DNA from: a virus
Lineage: Duplodnaviria; Heunggongvirae; Uroviricota; Caudoviricetes
IMG/VR virus record: IMGVR_UViG_2563366974_000010
Reading direction: 5' to 3' (one strand)
DNA length: 64,000 nt
Every line of letters begins with the position of its first letter. Positions within the stretch are counted from its first letter, which is position 1. The notes under the pieces were generated by a model. That model did not search any database, was not told the DNA's origin, and saw only the letters and a list, made by a program, of their open reading frames with translations. Shown piece by piece: positions 57,652 to 61,937 of this stretch. The position numbers and the translations under genes are program-made.

Positions 57652-58701
57652 ATGCTTAATACTGTAAAAATATCCAGTTGTGAGTTAATCAACGCCGACT
57701 GCCTGGAATTTATCCGGTCGTTACCCGAAAATTCTGTTGACCTGATAGTCACGGACCCGCCGTACTTTAAAGTGAAGCCTGAGGGCTGGGATAACCAGTG
57801 GAAGGGCGACGATGATTACCTGAAGTGGCTGGACCAGTGTCTGGCGCAGTTCTGGCGGGTGCTGAAACCTGCCGGAAGTCTTTACCTGTTCTGTGGTCAT
57901 CGCCTGGCATCTGATATCGAAATCATGATGCGTGAACGCTTCAGTGTGCTGAACCATATTATCTGGGCGAAGCCGTCCGGACGCTGGAACGGATGCAACA
58001 AGGAAAGCCTGCGGGCGTATTTCCCCGCCACAGAGCGCATTCTGTTCGCGGAACATTATCAGGGGCCGTATCGTCCGAAAGATGCCGGGTATGCGGCGAA
58101 GGGCAGTGCACTGAAACAGCATGTGATGGCCCCGCTGATTTCTTACTTTCGTGATGCGCGCGCGGCCCTGGGGATAACGGCAAAACAGATTGCAGATGCC
58201 ACAGGAAAGAAAAACATGGTGTCGCACTGGTTCAGTGCCAGTCAGTGGCAGCTACCGAATGAAAGCGATTATCTGAAATTACAGGCGCTGTTTGCCCGGG
58301 TGGCAGAAGAGAAGCATCGGCGTGGTGAACTGGAAAAGCTCCACCACCAGCTGGTGGATACGTATACCTCACTGAACCGGCAGTATGCGGAGCTGCTGAG
58401 TGAATATAAACATCTGCGGCGGTATTTTGGCGTGACGGTGCAGGTGCCGTATACCGATGTGTGGACGCATAAACCGGTGCAGTTCTATCCCGGGAAACAT
58501 CCGTGCGAAAAACCGGCAGAAATGCTGCAGCAGATAATCAGCGCAAGTAGCCGTCCTGGTGATCTGGTTGCGGATTTTTTCATGGGGTCGGGTTCAACGG
58601 TAAAAGCGGCGATGGCACTGGGGCGTCGTGCGATTGGTGTTGAGCTGGAGACCGGACGTTTTGAGCAGACAGTCAGGGAAGTTCAGGATTTAATCGTTTG
58701 A
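57652..58701 (+). CDS. DNA methyltransferase (amino-MTase, DPPY motif)
   Basis: Motif IV TDPPYF near N-terminus and FFMGSGST (AdoMet-binding) near C-terminus. Confidence 0.8.
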   Translation: MLNTVKISSCELINADCLEFIRSLPENSVDLIVTDPPYFKVKPEGWDNQWKGDDDYLKWLDQCLAQFWRVLKPAGSLYLFCGHRLASDIEIMMRERFSVLNHIIWAKPSGRWNGCNKESLRAYFPATERILFAEHYQGPYRPKDAGYAAKGSALKQHVMAPLISYFRDARAALGITAKQIADATGKKNMVSHWFSASQWQLPNESDYLKLQALFARVAEEKHRRGELEKLHHQLVDTYTSLNRQYAELLSEYKHLRRYFGVTVQVPYTDVWTHKPVQFYPGKHPCEKPAEMLQQIISASSRPGDLVADFFMGSGSTVKAAMALGRRAIGVELETGRFEQTVREVQDLIV

Positions 58702-58750
58702 AACGGATGAGATTGCAGAATTAATTACGCACCATTATTATTCTGCTCCC

Positions 58751-58826
58751 GGCCCTTTAGCTCAGTGGTGAGAGCGAGCGACTCATAATCGCCAGGTCGC
58801 TGGTTCAAATCCAGCAAGGGCCACCA
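58751..58826 (+). tRNA. tRNA with CAT anticodon (Met / Ile2-lysidine type)
   Basis: Manual cloverleaf: acceptor GGCCCTT/AAGGGCC, anticodon loop CTCATAA, T loop TTCAAAT, CCA end. Confidence 0.8.
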
Positions 58827-58833
58827 TCACATA

Positions 58834-58910
58834 CCGCCATTAGCTCATCAGGAAAGAGCGCCAGCCTTCGAAGCTGGTTGCGCGGAGTTCGGGTCCCCGA
58901 AGGCGGTCCA
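58834..58910 (+). tRNA. tRNA-Arg-like (anticodon TCG), imperfect
   Basis: Cloverleaf with perfect anticodon stem CCAGC/GCTGG and loop CTTCGAA, but one mismatch each in acceptor and T stems; may be degenerate. Confidence 0.5.
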
Positions 58911-58923
58911 TTATCTGTATCCT

Positions 58924-59000
58924 GCGTTGTTAGCTCAGCCGGACAGAGCAATTGCCTTCTAAGCAATCGGTCACTGGTTCGAATCCAGTACAACGCGCCA
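58924..59000 (+). tRNA. tRNA-Arg (anticodon TCT)
   Basis: Cloverleaf: acceptor GCGTTGT/ACAACGC, anticodon loop CTTCTAA, T loop TTCGAAT, CCA end. Confidence 0.8.
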
Positions 59001-59045
59001 CACTTATTTTCCCTGGCTCGCTTTTGCGGGCTTTTTTTTAAATGT

Positions 59046-59258
59046 CTCACAATTCAGGCGGTTGACTGTTGTCTGGTTTGCGGGGAGTTTGTTAAAAGAA
59101 ACTGGCATGGTGAATCCCCCTGTGCGGAGGGGCAATCAGCGAGTAGGTATATGGGATAATCGCGGATTCAGGTGCTGGTACTGAATTCACCGGGAGGCAC
59201 CCGGCACCATGCAATGGCACATAGCGCCACTCTCCAGCCCCTCTCCGGAGGGGCTTTT
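59046..59258 (+). repeat. Structured repeat unit 1 (promoter-like TTGACT, nested hairpins closed by CATGGTG/CACCATG, terminator)
   Basis: CATGGTG 59106-59112 pairs with CACCATG 59205-59211; internal hairpins; terminator GCCCCTC-tccg-GAGGGGC-TTTT 59237-59258. Confidence 0.5.
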
Positions 59259-59513
59259 CTGTGCCGGATACATCACAGTTTCTGGAACCTTAGGTACTAC
59301 AGTATCAGTCAGGGTGCTATATTTTCAGATGTGATGAAAGCCTGTCAGCAGGCAGGGCGTATCGGAAATGACCCAGTAGAGAAAACGTTGACTCAGATAC
59401 CGGTGCTGAGTTACCGGGAAACCGGCATCACATGACCGCTATCCTTCCAGGCCCATCCGCTCCGGTGGGCCTTTTTACTGCAGAAAACAGGTTCCCCGTT
59501 AAATGCTATGTTG

Positions 59514-59744
59514 CTCACAATTCAGTAAGTTGACAGTTGCCTGTCAGACTGGGCATTTGTTAAAAAAATTTCGCATGGTGAATCCCCCTGAGCGGAGGGG
59601 CGACTGGTGACGGTATAATCTCTGATTATCAAAACGAGAATGACGCGGGTTTAGTGGCACCGGGCTGAACTCACCGGGAGGCACCCGGCACCATGTGCAT
59701 GATGATACAGATACGCGGCTTTAGCCCCTCTCCGGAGGGGTTTT
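59514..59744 (+). repeat. Structured repeat unit 2 (diverged copy of unit 1)
   Basis: Shares CTCACAATTCAG, TTGAC, CATGGTGAATCCCCCTG.GCGGAGGGG, CCGGGAGGCACCCGGCACCATG and CCCCTCTCCGGAGGGG-TTTT blocks with unit 1. Confidence 0.5.
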
Positions 59745-59975
59745 CTTGTGGGCAAAAAAAGCCCGCGCTGGGAGACGCGGGCGGCAAGGAATAAACAATA
59801 AAACGTGAAGTAATATTTCAGCTGGCGAATAATACCCCATAGTAATCACTCTGCGCAACTGCGCGGTCTTTTTCGAATTGCGGGCTGTCGTCTCTCTTCT
59901 GCCATTGTCCTGTAACTTCCGGACTTCAGCCCGCTCCTTATTTTACTCACAATATTATCCCGGCCGGGAGGATTC

Positions 59976-61937
59976 ATGGCATTTAAACACTATGACGTGG
60001 TCAGGGCGGCATCGCCGTCAGACCTTGCGAAACGACTGACACAAAAACTGAAGGAGGGGTGGCAGCCATTTGGCAGTCCGGTGGCCATCACGCCTTATAC
60101 CCTGATGCAGGCCATTGCGGCGGAAGGTGATGTCACCACACCTGTGGTGGTGAAGCCGTCGGATGGAGAAGGCGCAGTTATCAGCAACACCAGCAACCCG
60201 GAGTATTACTTTGTTGTTGCCCTGGCCGGGCAGTCAAACGGTATGGCGTATGGTGAAGGGCTTCCGCTGCCGGAGACATATGACCGTCCGGACCCGCGTA
60301 TTAAACAGCTGGCGCGTCGCAGCACTGTCACGCCGGGTGGTGCGTCCTGTAACTACAATGACATTATTCCTGCGGACCACTGCCTGCATGATGTTCAGGA
60401 TTTGAGTAAGTTTTCACACCCGAAAGCCAGCGCAGCTCAGTATGGATGCGTGGGGCAGGGATTACATATCGCGAAGAAATTGTTGCCGTTTATTCCGGCG
60501 AATGCCGGTATTCTTCTGGTTCCGTGCTGCCGTGGTGGTTCTGCATTTTTGGCGGGCGATGAAGGTACCTTCAGCGAATCCACCGGCGCAAGCGAGACCT
60601 CGGCACGCTGGGGTGTAGATAAGCCACTGTACAAGGACCTGCTTACCCGTACTCAGGCCGCACTGAAGGCCAACCCTAAAAATATTCTGCTTGCAGTGGT
60701 CTGGATGCAGGGCGAGTTTGATTTGAAACAGGGTGCATACGCCACTCAGCCGGGGCTGTTTGATTCCATGGTGGAAAAATATCGTTCTGACCTGTCGGAA
60801 TTCGGAGGTCAGTGTCTCGGGGGCTCTCCGTCATCGGTTCCCTGGATTTGTGGCGACACGACCTACTACTGGAAGCAGACTTATTCTTCGCAATACGATG
60901 CGGTGTATGGTGCATACAAGACGAAATCCGCAAAAAAAATCTTCTTTGTGCCGTTTATGACGGATGAAAACGGGCGAAATGTGGGTACCAACGAGCCGTC
61001 AGAAGATCCGGATGTTGCGGATATTGGGTATTACGGAGCCGGTGGTCGAACGGACGCCAAAACCTGGACGACGGCTGACCGTAAAACGCATTTTGGATCA
61101 TGGGCACGTCGTGGGATTATTTCCGACCGTCTGGCAACGGCGATTCTTGTGCATGCCGGGAGAACCGCTGAATTCATTACCGGAAAACAGCCTGATACGG
61201 TGAAGCCCACCGGACCTTCCGGTGAAGGTACGGAGAGAGAGCCGGAAGGTCCGGTCAGTAACCGAACCCTGATGAGTCTGCTGGCGTCCGGCGAAGACCT
61301 GGCATCACAGGGCTGGCGCTATTATCACAAACCGGCGAGCGGAGACAATGTTAACAAAAACATTGCTGAAGCGGTGGTCAGTGATGCGGGGGCTACGGGA
61401 GGTAAGGCCCTGCAACTGAATAAACCGGAAAACCACATCTGGTTTCTGGAGCATGATGCAGCCGGGCAGGGGGCAGAGTTGCTGAAGAAAGGAGGACGTG
61501 TGAGCGTACGGTTTAAGTTGCCGGGTTCACTGGTGCCGAATCAGTTTGCCCTGGGCATTTACTGGCAGTTGTCGTCCCTGCCGGAGGGAGTGACGCTGGC
61601 AGAGGAAGGCAACGACATGCTGATGTCCTTCTTCCTGCAGACGGATGCGACGAACCTGAACGCGATGCACCACAAGAAGCCGAATGCGAAGCTGGATACG
61701 TTCGGGGTCTTTGATAACGGATGGCACACACTGGCTTTTGAGTTTGCCGGAAACAACAGCATTCAGGTGACGCCGGTACTGGATGAGAAACGGGGGACGC
61801 CGTTCACACTGGTGAAATCTCCGGCATCAGGGGCGGCGGACAAACTGCAACTGACAGGCATATCAAAGGCGGCGACATATACGCTGCTGATTGACAGTGT
61901 GAAGGTGGAAGTGAACAACGCGGATGCCGCGGCATGA
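59976..61937 (+). CDS. nanS-p: NanS-p-like sialate O-acetylesterase (SASA family)
   Basis: 653 aa; GQSN catalytic-serine block (ALAGQSNGM); position downstream of tRNAs as in Stx-phage late regions. Confidence 0.65.
   Translation: MAFKHYDVVRAASPSDLAKRLTQKLKEGWQPFGSPVAITPYTLMQAIAAEGDVTTPVVVKPSDGEGAVISNTSNPEYYFVVALAGQSNGMAYGEGLPLPETYDRPDPRIKQLARRSTVTPGGASCNYNDIIPADHCLHDVQDLSKFSHPKASAAQYGCVGQGLHIAKKLLPFIPANAGILLVPCCRGGSAFLAGDEGTFSESTGASETSARWGVDKPLYKDLLTRTQAALKANPKNILLAVVWMQGEFDLKQGAYATQPGLFDSMVEKYRSDLSEFGGQCLGGSPSSVPWICGDTTYYWKQTYSSQYDAVYGAYKTKSAKKIFFVPFMTDENGRNVGTNEPSEDPDVADIGYYGAGGRTDAKTWTTADRKTHFGSWARRGIISDRLATAILVHAGRTAEFITGKQPDTVKPTGPSGEGTEREPEGPVSNRTLMSLLASGEDLASQGWRYYHKPASGDNVNKNIAEAVVSDAGATGGKALQLNKPENHIWFLEHDAAGQGAELLKKGGRVSVRFKLPGSLVPNQFALGIYWQLSSLPEGVTLAEEGNDMLMSFFLQTDATNLNAMHHKKPNAKLDTFGVFDNGWHTLAFEFAGNNSIQVTPVLDEKRGTPFTLVKSPASGAADKLQLTGISKAATYTLLIDSVKVEVNNADAAA

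Follow-up and report, generated by a model that had tools for sequence, protein, structure and literature searches.

The late region of this prophage raises the question of whether a gene order resembling that of Shiga-toxin-converting phages, found here without toxin genes, is the remnant of a toxin phage or an arrangement of a more ordinary kind. A sequence-only reading of the window (the whole stretch of 64,000 nucleotides that was analysed) had described it as Stx-phage-like without toxin. The elements named by that reading were all found where it had placed them, as ORFs with Pfam or PDB matches and as tRNAs detected by ARAGORN and Rfam. They are arranged as a Q-lambda-family antiterminator, a lambda-like pR' with terminator, a 349-aa methyltransferase, three tRNAs, a 653-aa NanS-p-type esterase and a P21-type holin. 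We favour, with a probability of about 0.88, an interpretation as the promoter-proximal stretch of a Q-dependent late operon, belonging to a lambdoid prophage in an E. coli host and having a vacant cargo slot.

The likeness to Stx phages is genuine. Stx2a, Stx2c and Stx2d phages show the same order, namely Q, a small ORF, the methylase, three tRNAs, stx2AB, STnc100, the esterase, DUF1378, DUF826 and the holin. Stx2 phages such as Stx2_EH1910 (LC567834) and 1720a-02 share Q, the 65-aa ORF, the methylase, ileZ-argN-argO and the terminator, followed by the elements from STnc100 to the holin, all in the same order; as far as the tRNA terminator the DNA is 93% identical. These phages differ in that stx2AB, with or without iraM, occupies their slot, that they have a single STnc100 unit, and that DNA identity falls to 71–74% over the esterase and the genes that follow it. 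Phage 933W (AF125520) shares ileZ-argN-argO, the terminator, the slot, STnc100, the esterase (L0105) and holin S, but its Q is short (157 aa) and unlike the one found here, stx2AB fills its slot, and its AsxR is convergent to STnc100. Since Q and the tRNAs have no methylase between them in 933W, the placement of a methyltransferase there "as in Stx phages" holds for other Stx2 phages but not for this one.

Toxin genes are absent, as had been claimed for the interval between tRNAs and esterase. A tblastn search with Stx2A and Stx2B over the whole window gave a best E-value of 0.08 and nothing within 59000–59976, the stx2 interval of 933W matched the window by its flanks alone in blastn, and the ORFs of 53–93 aa checked between tRNAs and esterase had no Pfam match.

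A terminator 3' of argO and an unoccupied cargo ("moron") junction at about 59038/59039 lie at 59015–59045 (+ strand), as indicated by a terminator scan and by breaks in homology. Homology to the Stx2a phage EH1910, to 933W and to the prophage of strain ABU 83972 ends at one and the same point, about 59038, just past the argO terminator. A precise deletion of stxAB from a former Stx-converting phage, leaving an empty toxin site, could produce such a picture, as homology to Stx2 phages stops where the stx2 upstream region starts and resumes at an STnc100 unit, T-runs at the junction could mediate a deletion, and identity to a Stx2a phage is 93% over the left part (Q to tRNAs). We nevertheless regard this origin as highly improbable. 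The searches recovered no stx remnant, the nearest relatives (96.7–99.9% identical) are all toxin-free, and the esterase (60% in protein), like the esterase and downstream genes together (71–74% in DNA), is distant from that of Stx phages. Moreover, relatives hold unrelated cargo at the same junction, and the scaffold is about ten times commoner than stx2: the tRNA trio was counted at 7597 places, spread over 3061 of 5426 genomes, vs 743 places in 602 genomes for stx2AB. A decayed toxin phage is thus disfavoured, as the nearest relatives are toxin-free prophages of identical arrangement and no trace of stx was found; what stands of the sequence-only reading is the architecture and the absence of stx, while the origin that it implied, a Stx phage minus its toxin, is not supported.

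The cargos seen at this junction are none, TerB with DUF3927 (a 750 bp insert at 59038 in ABU 83972), DUF3927 alone, IraM with DUF3927, and Stx2AB with or without IraM. The site at about 59038 is a generic moron slot that is unoccupied here, and not a toxin-specific scar. A moron site located 3' of PR' and bearing pairs of convergent sRNAs has been described by Tree et al. 2014 (PMC4104026) in the Stx2 phage Sp5 and in other O157 Sakai lambdoid prophages (Sp3, Sp4, Sp9, Sp10, Sp11, Sp15 and Sp17). The present locus shares with these an insertion-tolerant site downstream of a Q-antiterminated PR' and convergent sRNA genes, in that a + strand STnc100 unit faces a terminator-bearing element on the − strand. 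It differs in having three tandem + strand units instead of one, and in a minus-strand element that is without the 3' region conserved in AsxR and AgvB.

The structured repeats noted between tRNAs and esterase proved to be real, and consist of three tandem units of the STnc100/PasD sRNA family, two intact and the middle one decayed, all on the + strand. Unit a (59046–59266; repeat family D1–D3) matches Rfam RF02076 at 59076–59266 with 136.3 bits, far above the gathering score of 47 bits; it has TCACAATTCAG...TTGACT upstream and its own terminator at 59236–59255, and position 59105 corresponds in alignment to the 5' end mapped for EPEC PasD2. The middle unit (59267–59480) stays under the gathering score with 30.1 bits (E 1e-3), although its core and terminator (59449–59472) align to units a and b. 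Unit b (59514–59753; 161 bits at 59544–59753) is the copy held in common with Stx2 phages, being 87% identical to the EH1910 copy downstream of stx2B. The two full-length matches and the position upstream of the esterase, where PasD/STnc100 has been placed (Zhu et al. 2026, 10.64898/2026.05.13.724894), agree with the known sRNAs, as does the conserved PasD2 5' end GCATGGTGAATCC (same source), whereas the PasD seed (GUGAG) region is absent and the units here form a tandem array whose middle copy is decayed.

These units could themselves be the cargo, with unit a and the decayed middle unit (59039–59513) forming an sRNA cassette in place of stxAB. In EH1910 and 933W, stx2AB lies in the stretch from 59038 to their counterpart of unit b (59514), unit a is only 69–71% identical to the Stx-phage copy, and STnc100 relatives are expressed in lysogens, one of them, PasD, binding Hfq (PMC8550237, PMC12370729). 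ABU 83972, however, has the TerB/DUF3927 cargo in addition to units a, middle and b. Because its insert is upstream of unit a, these units and a cargo are not mutually exclusive, and we consider a filled slot improbable. Units a and middle behave as part of the scaffold of this lineage, and the slot itself is best described as vacant.

The convergent small-RNA-like element on the − strand (59754–59815) has a strong terminator (59782–59761, 7 G-C pairs). It occupies the position of AsxR, but an identification as AsxR was rejected, as its sequence is unlike the AsxR of 933W and ABU 83972 and an AsxR search gave no match at E ≤ 1. It closely resembles the EPEC RIL-seq candidate "E2348C_1409.E2348C_1408.IGR" (PMC8550237 supplement).

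The closest relatives fall into several groups. A prophage of E. coli O18:H1 CFSAN067215 is 99.1% identical and colinear over 57000–62300, those of ABU 83972 and many other isolates, mostly human, are 96.7% identical, and those of ZJ3920, S88 and ATCC 11775 are 99.9–100% identical over the shared parts; all are toxin-free. Stx phages, in comparison, are 80–87% identical overall, the higher value of 93% applying up to the tRNAs. Toxin-free prophages of extraintestinal E. coli adjoining ompW (ZJ3920, S88, ATCC 11775, MS7163) share 99.9% identity from yciB through the early region and a tRNA block that is 100% identical. Gene order is the same throughout in these and in the related prophages of CFSAN067215 and ABU 83972. 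Each group has its own differences: the esterase is truncated to a DUF1737 stub in ZJ3920-type copies, the methylase is frameshifted in CFSAN067215, and ABU 83972-type copies carry the TerB and DUF3927 insert, an intact argN and an AsxR-like RNA. No RefSeq complete genome matches the window at full length. The late leader, built on a scaffold shared with Stx2 phages, is common, ordinary and already known, being annotated in hundreds of genomes.

The late antiterminator Q (56258–57079, +) belongs to the Q-lambda family (PF03589, E 2e-49; PDB Q-lambda 7ubm, E 2e-38). It is 31% identical to lambda Q with a gap block of 68 positions, and its approximately 66 extra residues are CxxC zinc-ribbon repeats. 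The pR'-like promoter (57085–57124, +) was recognised by direct alignment with lambda pR' (TTGACT-17-TAAATT-tgactc-AACGATGGG), from which its function is also taken. It consists of a −35 element TTGATT (57085–57090), a 16-nt spacer and a −10 element TAAATT (57107–57112), followed by the −10-like pause element AACGAT (57119–57124); with a score of 8/12 it was below the cutoff of the promoter scan. The tR'-like intrinsic terminator (57162–57184, +; CCCGCCGCCTGGCGGG then TTTTTT) has 6 G-C pairs, and terminator-like hairpins are enriched (21 found vs 6.0 ± 2.7 in shuffles). A 65-aa ORF (57304–57501, +), annotated as hypothetical protein and kept in position in relatives and Stx2 phages, is followed by a terminator at 57488–57505. 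Its one match, to a winged helix (TrmB, E 0.004), is weak and below the Pfam cutoff, and it shows no similarity to lambda orf-64.

The methyltransferase (57652–58701, +; PF01555, E 4e-43) is predicted to be an orphan beta-class N6-adenine enzyme of the M.EcoGII type, having DPPY before FxGxG and PDB matches to the beta-class enzymes RsrI and CcrM. It shares its length (349 aa), motif order, and prophage-borne, orphan nature with M.EcoGII and M.EcoGI (PMC5778455). It is 95% identical to the methylase of phage 1720a-02 and equally to the non-specific adenine methylase M.EcoGII; of the approximately 17–19 substitutions relative to the latter, some may be errors in the comparison sequence, which was machine-read from the PMC11551740 supplement and may contain a few. 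M.EcoGII is encoded by a prophage and stays silent in the lysogenic state (Murray et al. 2018, PMC5778455).

All three tRNAs, which are on the + strand, were found by ARAGORN and exceed the Rfam gathering score of 29 bits. The first (58751–58826, anticodon CAT, 72.5 bits) is a tRNA-Ile reading AUA, annotated as tRNA-Ile in relatives and 933W and identical to 933W ileZ at 76 of 76 positions. The third (58924–59000, tRNA-Arg TCT, reading AGA; 70.1 bits) is an argO homologue, identical to argO of the Stx2a phage EH1910 and one nucleotide different from that of 933W. The suspicion that the middle tRNA is degenerate was well founded. This argN homologue (58834–58910, tRNA-Arg TCG) has seven differences from 933W argN, with A6.A67 and A52.C62 mismatches and A58G in the T-loop, and it scores 43.4 bits vs 54.8 in 933W and 56.1 in ABU 83972. 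In its minimum-energy fold the acceptor stem is 5 bp long and the T arm is shifted; the ABU 83972 version, by contrast, gives a canonical cloverleaf.

The esterase (59976–61937, +; 653 aa) is an intact NanS-p-type sialate 9-O-acetylesterase with DUF1737, a SASA catalytic domain with GQSN, and a C-terminal carbohydrate-binding domain (DUF6645). It resembles NanS (PDB 3pt5, E 1e-118) and the NanS-p C-terminal domain (6yp6, E 4e-61) in its three domains, its GQSN serine motif and a conserved His in THFGSWARR that aligns to NanS. The protein is 99% identical to that of ABU 83972 and represents an allele distinct from 933W L0105 (60%); nanS-p is also known from non-Stx prophages (PMC10462455). Downstream genes (62074–63203, +), assigned by Pfam and ordered as in toxin-free relatives, are DUF1378 (62074–62256), DUF826 (62297–62563), the P21-type holin S (62639–62854; PF04971) and DUF1327/YdfR (62859–63203).

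Homology to lambda, to Stx phages and to homologues that have been characterised suggests the following working. In the lysogen, transcripts from pR' (from about 57119) would halt at tR', and only small RNAs with promoters of their own would be made, namely those of the STnc100 units and the convergent one on the − strand, perhaps together with the tRNAs. Upon induction, Q would load onto RNA polymerase paused at AACGAT, enabling it to pass at least seven + strand terminator-like hairpins. Read-through would yield a methylase expected to modify adenines of progeny DNA without sequence specificity, so giving broad protection from restriction, followed by tRNAs for AUA and AGA/AGG, and formerly also CGA/CGG. 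The prophage appears to use the codons matched by these tRNAs several-fold more than neighbouring core genes, with 12.1 ATA and 15.2 AGA+AGG per 1000 codons in its early genes vs 4.7 and 1.6 in the adjacent core genes (n = 3 genes only). The esterase, freed at lysis, would strip 9-O-acetyl groups off sialic acids and so provide a carbon source, and the last product would be the pinholin lysis cassette. With an impaired argN and a +1 frameshift in the endolysin gene, this copy may not run the lytic programme in full, and it is probably a resident prophage in partial decay. It adjoins ompW, with its integrase at 42694–43824, and the closest matches to its host are mostly human clinical isolates, including the extraintestinal strains S88 and ABU 83972.

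We regard the late region of the lambdoid prophage beside ompW as ordinary, toxin-free and already annotated. Stx phages are assembled from late regions of this sort, and nothing in the present one is new in kind. All the elements named in the sequence-only reading were recovered by ORF listing, ARAGORN and Rfam, and its proposal of a Stx-phage-like architecture is borne out, as the Q gene, tRNAs, cargo slot, STnc100, nanS-p and holin are colinear with the Stx2a phage Stx2_EH1910 (LC567834) and other Stx2 phages. The absence of toxin genes, also proposed there, was confirmed. 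With Stx2A and Stx2B (tblastn), hits across the window did not go below E 0.08 and 59000–59976 gave none, and a search for stx remnants with the stx2 interval of phage 933W (blastn) matched in the flanks alone. There is thus no stxA-stxB operon downstream of Q and pR' such as defines a Stx-converting lambdoid phage.

We take the window to have an unoccupied generic cargo site and not a toxin scar. Homology to strain ABU 83972 runs to 59038 and starts again from 59035, with a 750 bp insert (TerB-family and DUF3927) between. With EH1910 there is 93% identity up to 59038, where stx2AB follows, and homology is found again from 59515 (87%, in the last small-RNA unit); homology to 933W likewise breaks at 59038. 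The junction can be placed within a few bases (~59038/59039), directly past the T-run of the argO terminator. In a spread sample of genome matches, the slot contained nothing, DUF3927, TerB plus DUF3927, IraM plus DUF3927, or Stx2AB with or without IraM. The toxin-free state is the common one, since the tRNA trio (7597 places in 3061 of 5426 genomes) far outnumbers stx2AB (743 places in 602 genomes). For an E. coli prophage family that is very common, a “Stx-phage-like” late region is the standard scaffold, and signals neither a toxin phage nor the loss of a toxin. This is helpful when pathogenic potential is judged from partial sequence, and has little weight beyond correct annotation; worth recording are the slot position, the methylase type and the small-RNA array next to the slot.

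Over the first dozen bases past the argO terminator (59026–59045), the TerB cargo of ABU 83972 (GTATCCGCGCC, L002 5040–5060) resembles the sequence that precedes stx2 (ATATCTGCGCC). In 933W, the string TTTTTTATATCTGC matches the end of lambda tR' exactly (L008 ~965–990); the comparison also covered L004 2395–2415. These likenesses hint at a leader common to the cargos and at a possible origin of the post-argO terminator from tR', the match being so short that it could be due to chance.

Stx2 phages matched best in the phage collection (80–87% identity, coverage at most 80%), and toxin-free phages with the same gene order, such as phi296 and PPwrbA, are also present. The best matches among complete E. 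coli genomes were all toxin-free. Strain CFSAN067215 (O18:H1) is 99.1% identical and colinear, and identity is 96.7% for ABU 83972 and numerous further isolates, mostly human. In ZJ3920, S88, MS7163 and ATCC 11775, identity is 99.9–100% from yciB-yciC-ompW through the integrase, early region and tRNAs, and because this identity runs from the chromosomal genes into the integrase and early region, the prophage is seen to sit beside ompW. Its early region, which is Qin/Rac-like, carries a DicF sRNA on the minus strand (47230–47281, 76.7 bits), and the prophage also has a hok/sok-type toxin-antitoxin at 54056–54380 (sok RF01794, 113 bits, with a hokD-like ORF).

As in other lambdoid Q-dependent late operons, a Q of known family lies directly upstream of the late promoter. 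The protein (273 aa, 56258–57079) matches PF03589 (E 2e-49) and the Q-lambda structures 7ubm (E 2e-38) and 4mo1, so that antitermination would be its expected function by close homology. It shares 31% identity with lambda Q and has about 66 extra residues with many CxxC pairs, for which a DnaJ zinc-finger match remained sub-threshold (28 bits vs a cutoff of 32.7). The additional residues form an insertion, the protein being Q-lambda-like at both ends. Right behind the Q stop codon, direct alignment with lambda identified a pR'-like promoter, TTGATT-16 nt-TAAATT-tgctct-AACGATGGG, the lambda counterpart being TTGACT-17-TAAATT-tgactc-AACGATGGG. This alignment was used in place of a generic sigma-70 scan, which flagged neither pR' nor the small-RNA promoters. 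The -10 hexamer and the -10-like pause element are both kept. Loading of lambda Q requires such a pause element, and its conservation, as aligned, fits a Q-lambda-family protein. Together with a tR'-like terminator at 57162–57184 (a G+C-rich hairpin followed by a T-run, from a terminator scan), the predicted arrangement is that of pR', a promoter-proximal sigma-dependent pause element and tR'. Terminator-like hairpins are over-represented in 56900–62700 (21, where shuffled sequences give 6.0 ± 2.7); they occur after a 65 aa ORF, after argO, after every small-RNA unit, and also on the minus strand (59782–59761). The 65 aa ORF showed no homology to lambda orf-64, which has an analogous position.

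The DNA methyltransferase (349 aa, 57652–58701, PF01555) has the beta-class motif order, with VTDPPYF at residues 33–39 followed by DFFMGSGST at 308–316, and is identical to M.EcoGII (sequence from the supplement of PMC11551740) at 331 of 350 aligned positions (95%). The same identity (95%) was found with the methylase of phage 1720a-02, a close M.EcoGII relative according to Murray et al. (PMC5778455). Motif order and close identity place it with the non-specific methylases of the M.EcoGII type. M.EcoGII itself acts on adenine whatever the surrounding sequence, and its gene is silent in lysogens (PMC5778455). By analogy with these close homologues, the window enzyme would methylate adenine non-specifically and, because its gene sits behind pR' and tR', should be expressed only on induction.

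Three tRNAs follow, all accepted by ARAGORN and, with a cloverleaf and a score above the RF00005 gathering threshold of 29 bits, by Rfam: tRNA CAT (58751–58826, 72.5 bits), tRNA TCG, the argN homologue (58834–58910, 43.4 bits), and tRNA TCT, the argO homologue (58924–59000, 70.1 bits). The first has the same sequence as 933W ileZ, annotated as tRNA-Ile (AUA) in that phage and, by RefSeq, in relatives; the third shows no difference from the argO of an Stx2a phage. The middle tRNA had been suspected of being degenerate from mismatches in its stems, and this is supported. It differs from 933W argN at 7 positions, resulting in A6.A67 and A52.C62 mismatches and an A58G exchange in the T-loop, so that the intact 7 bp acceptor stem, 5 bp T stem and A58 of a functional argN-type tRNA-Arg(UCG) are not retained. 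Its score is 11–13 bits below those of the 933W (54.8) and ABU 83972 (56.1) versions, and in its minimum-energy fold two acceptor pairs are lost and the T arm is shifted and non-canonical, whereas the ABU 83972 version folds as a canonical cloverleaf. The suspicion is further supported by many other E. coli records, in which one tRNA-Arg alone, or a “tRNA-OTHER”, is annotated at the argN position. From their close homologues, the tRNAs would be expected to supply rare codons. Usage of ATA and AGA/AGG in the prophage genes of the window is several times that in three neighbouring core genes, a small sample, in line with the reason usually given for rare-codon tRNAs on phages.

The structured repeats that had been noticed between the tRNAs and the esterase are real. 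Direct-repeat analysis and alignment resolve three tandem units of ~210–240 nt each (59046–59266, 59267–59480 and 59514–59753). The outer two qualify as STnc100 (RF02076), for which a full-length covariance-model match above 47 bits was applied, with 136.3 bits at 59076–59266 and 161 bits at 59544–59753; the middle one has a weak match of 30.1 bits (59305–59478), below the qualifying score. The outer units start with TCACAATTCAG...TTGAC. A CCGG-centred hairpin is present in all three, weakened in the middle unit, which has decayed, and a terminator closes each. The 5' end mapped for EPEC PasD2 (GCATGGTGAATCC) aligns at 59105 and 59573, which suggests that actual STnc100 transcripts may begin ~29 nt inside the Rfam model. 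The PasD and PasA RNAs of EPEC E2348/69 were themselves rejected as counterparts, as PasD2 aligns to the two STnc100 units over its first 26–39 nt only and PasA has no match. PasD and STnc100 have been described as related and located upstream of a prophage sialic-acid esterase (Zhu, Shabalina and Storz, 10.64898/2026.05.13.724894), and in Stx2 phages an STnc100 copy lies 75 nt past stx2 (PMC12370729). The ORFs of 53–93 aa checked between the tRNAs and the esterase had no Pfam match.

Convergent with the last unit is a short minus-strand element (59754–59815) with a strong terminator (59782–59761). It closely matches the EPEC RIL-seq sRNA candidate “E2348C_1409.E2348C_1408.IGR” (PMC8550237 supplement), the 3' half being nearly identical. 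In 933W and ABU 83972 AsxR takes this position, in EH1910 iraM. An identification as AsxR or AgvB (RF02703/RF02702), which calls for a covariance-model match with the conserved ~42 nt 3' region, was rejected, since no such match at E ≤ 1 was found in 57000–62700 and the sequence is unlike AsxR of 933W and ABU 83972. Tree et al. (PMC4104026) report the same arrangement, convergent sRNA pairs at a moron site that follows PR', from the Stx2 phage Sp5 and from other Sakai lambdoid prophages (Sp3, Sp4, Sp9, Sp10, Sp11, Sp15 and Sp17). One might regard the STnc100 array and the minus-strand RNA as functional, lysogen-expressed cargo of this extraintestinal E. coli prophage (trans-acting, Hfq-dependent regulators or sponges tuning host physiology) in place of the toxin or of the TerB/IraM of other lineages, with the conserved TCACAATTCAG unit border and the post-argO terminator as recombination joints by which cargos including stx are swapped. 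We consider this unlikely. As ABU 83972 possesses a cargo as well as all three units, the extra units are part of the lineage scaffold and not an alternative to cargo.

The esterase (653 aa, 59976–61937) has DUF1737, SASA and DUF6645 domains (Pfam); among solved structures it matches 3pt5 for the catalytic domain of NanS (E 1e-118) and 6yp6 for the C-terminal domain of NanS-p (E 4e-61). With DUF1737, SASA, a C-terminal carbohydrate-binding domain and a catalytic Ser in the aligned GQSN, it is a predicted NanS-p sialate O-acetylesterase, and sialate deacetylation would be its likely activity given that of close homologues. It is intact and 99% identical to the ABU 83972 copy, while ZJ3920-type copies are cut to a DUF1737 stub. 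On its 3' side lie DUF1378, DUF826, an intact P21-type holin S (62639–62854) and DUF1327 (Pfam). The endolysin gene (63547–64000, the window ending inside it) has a +1 frameshift in a G-run at ~63709 relative to the 177 aa ABU 83972 homologue, residues 1–55 and 54–151 matching in different frames. Since the annotation of the ZJ3920 homologue likewise records a frameshift, the prophage is probably lysis-defective. In the window copy, the signs of decay are this frameshift and the impaired argN. Gene losses differ by copy, the methylase being frameshifted in CFSAN067215 (L001 3655–4702), the esterase truncated in ZJ3920 (L006 22618–22836), and argN and the endolysin damaged in the window. That copies of one lineage have lost different late genes suggests a piecemeal decay of resident prophages.

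A second, unrelated prophage (1–40300) is located upstream of yciB-yciC-ompW; relatives of the ZJ3920 type had no match to window 30000–40349 next to yciB. It carries a terminase and portal as well as a DnaB-type helicase (5358–6794), a Q82-family antiterminator (10557–11246, PF06323), a tailspike with a GDSL esterase domain (33710–36292), an acyltransferase (36329–37414, minus strand), a UmuC-like polymerase (38138–39406) and an SRAP protein (39399–40070, minus strand). An “isrJ” Rfam match (64.9 bits, 11262–11334) begins 16 nt 3' of the Q gene and, by its position, looks like the late-promoter leader of this prophage and not a Salmonella-type IsrJ. It is followed by a tRNA-Thr (TGT, 11695–11769), so that the second prophage too has a tRNA just past Q.
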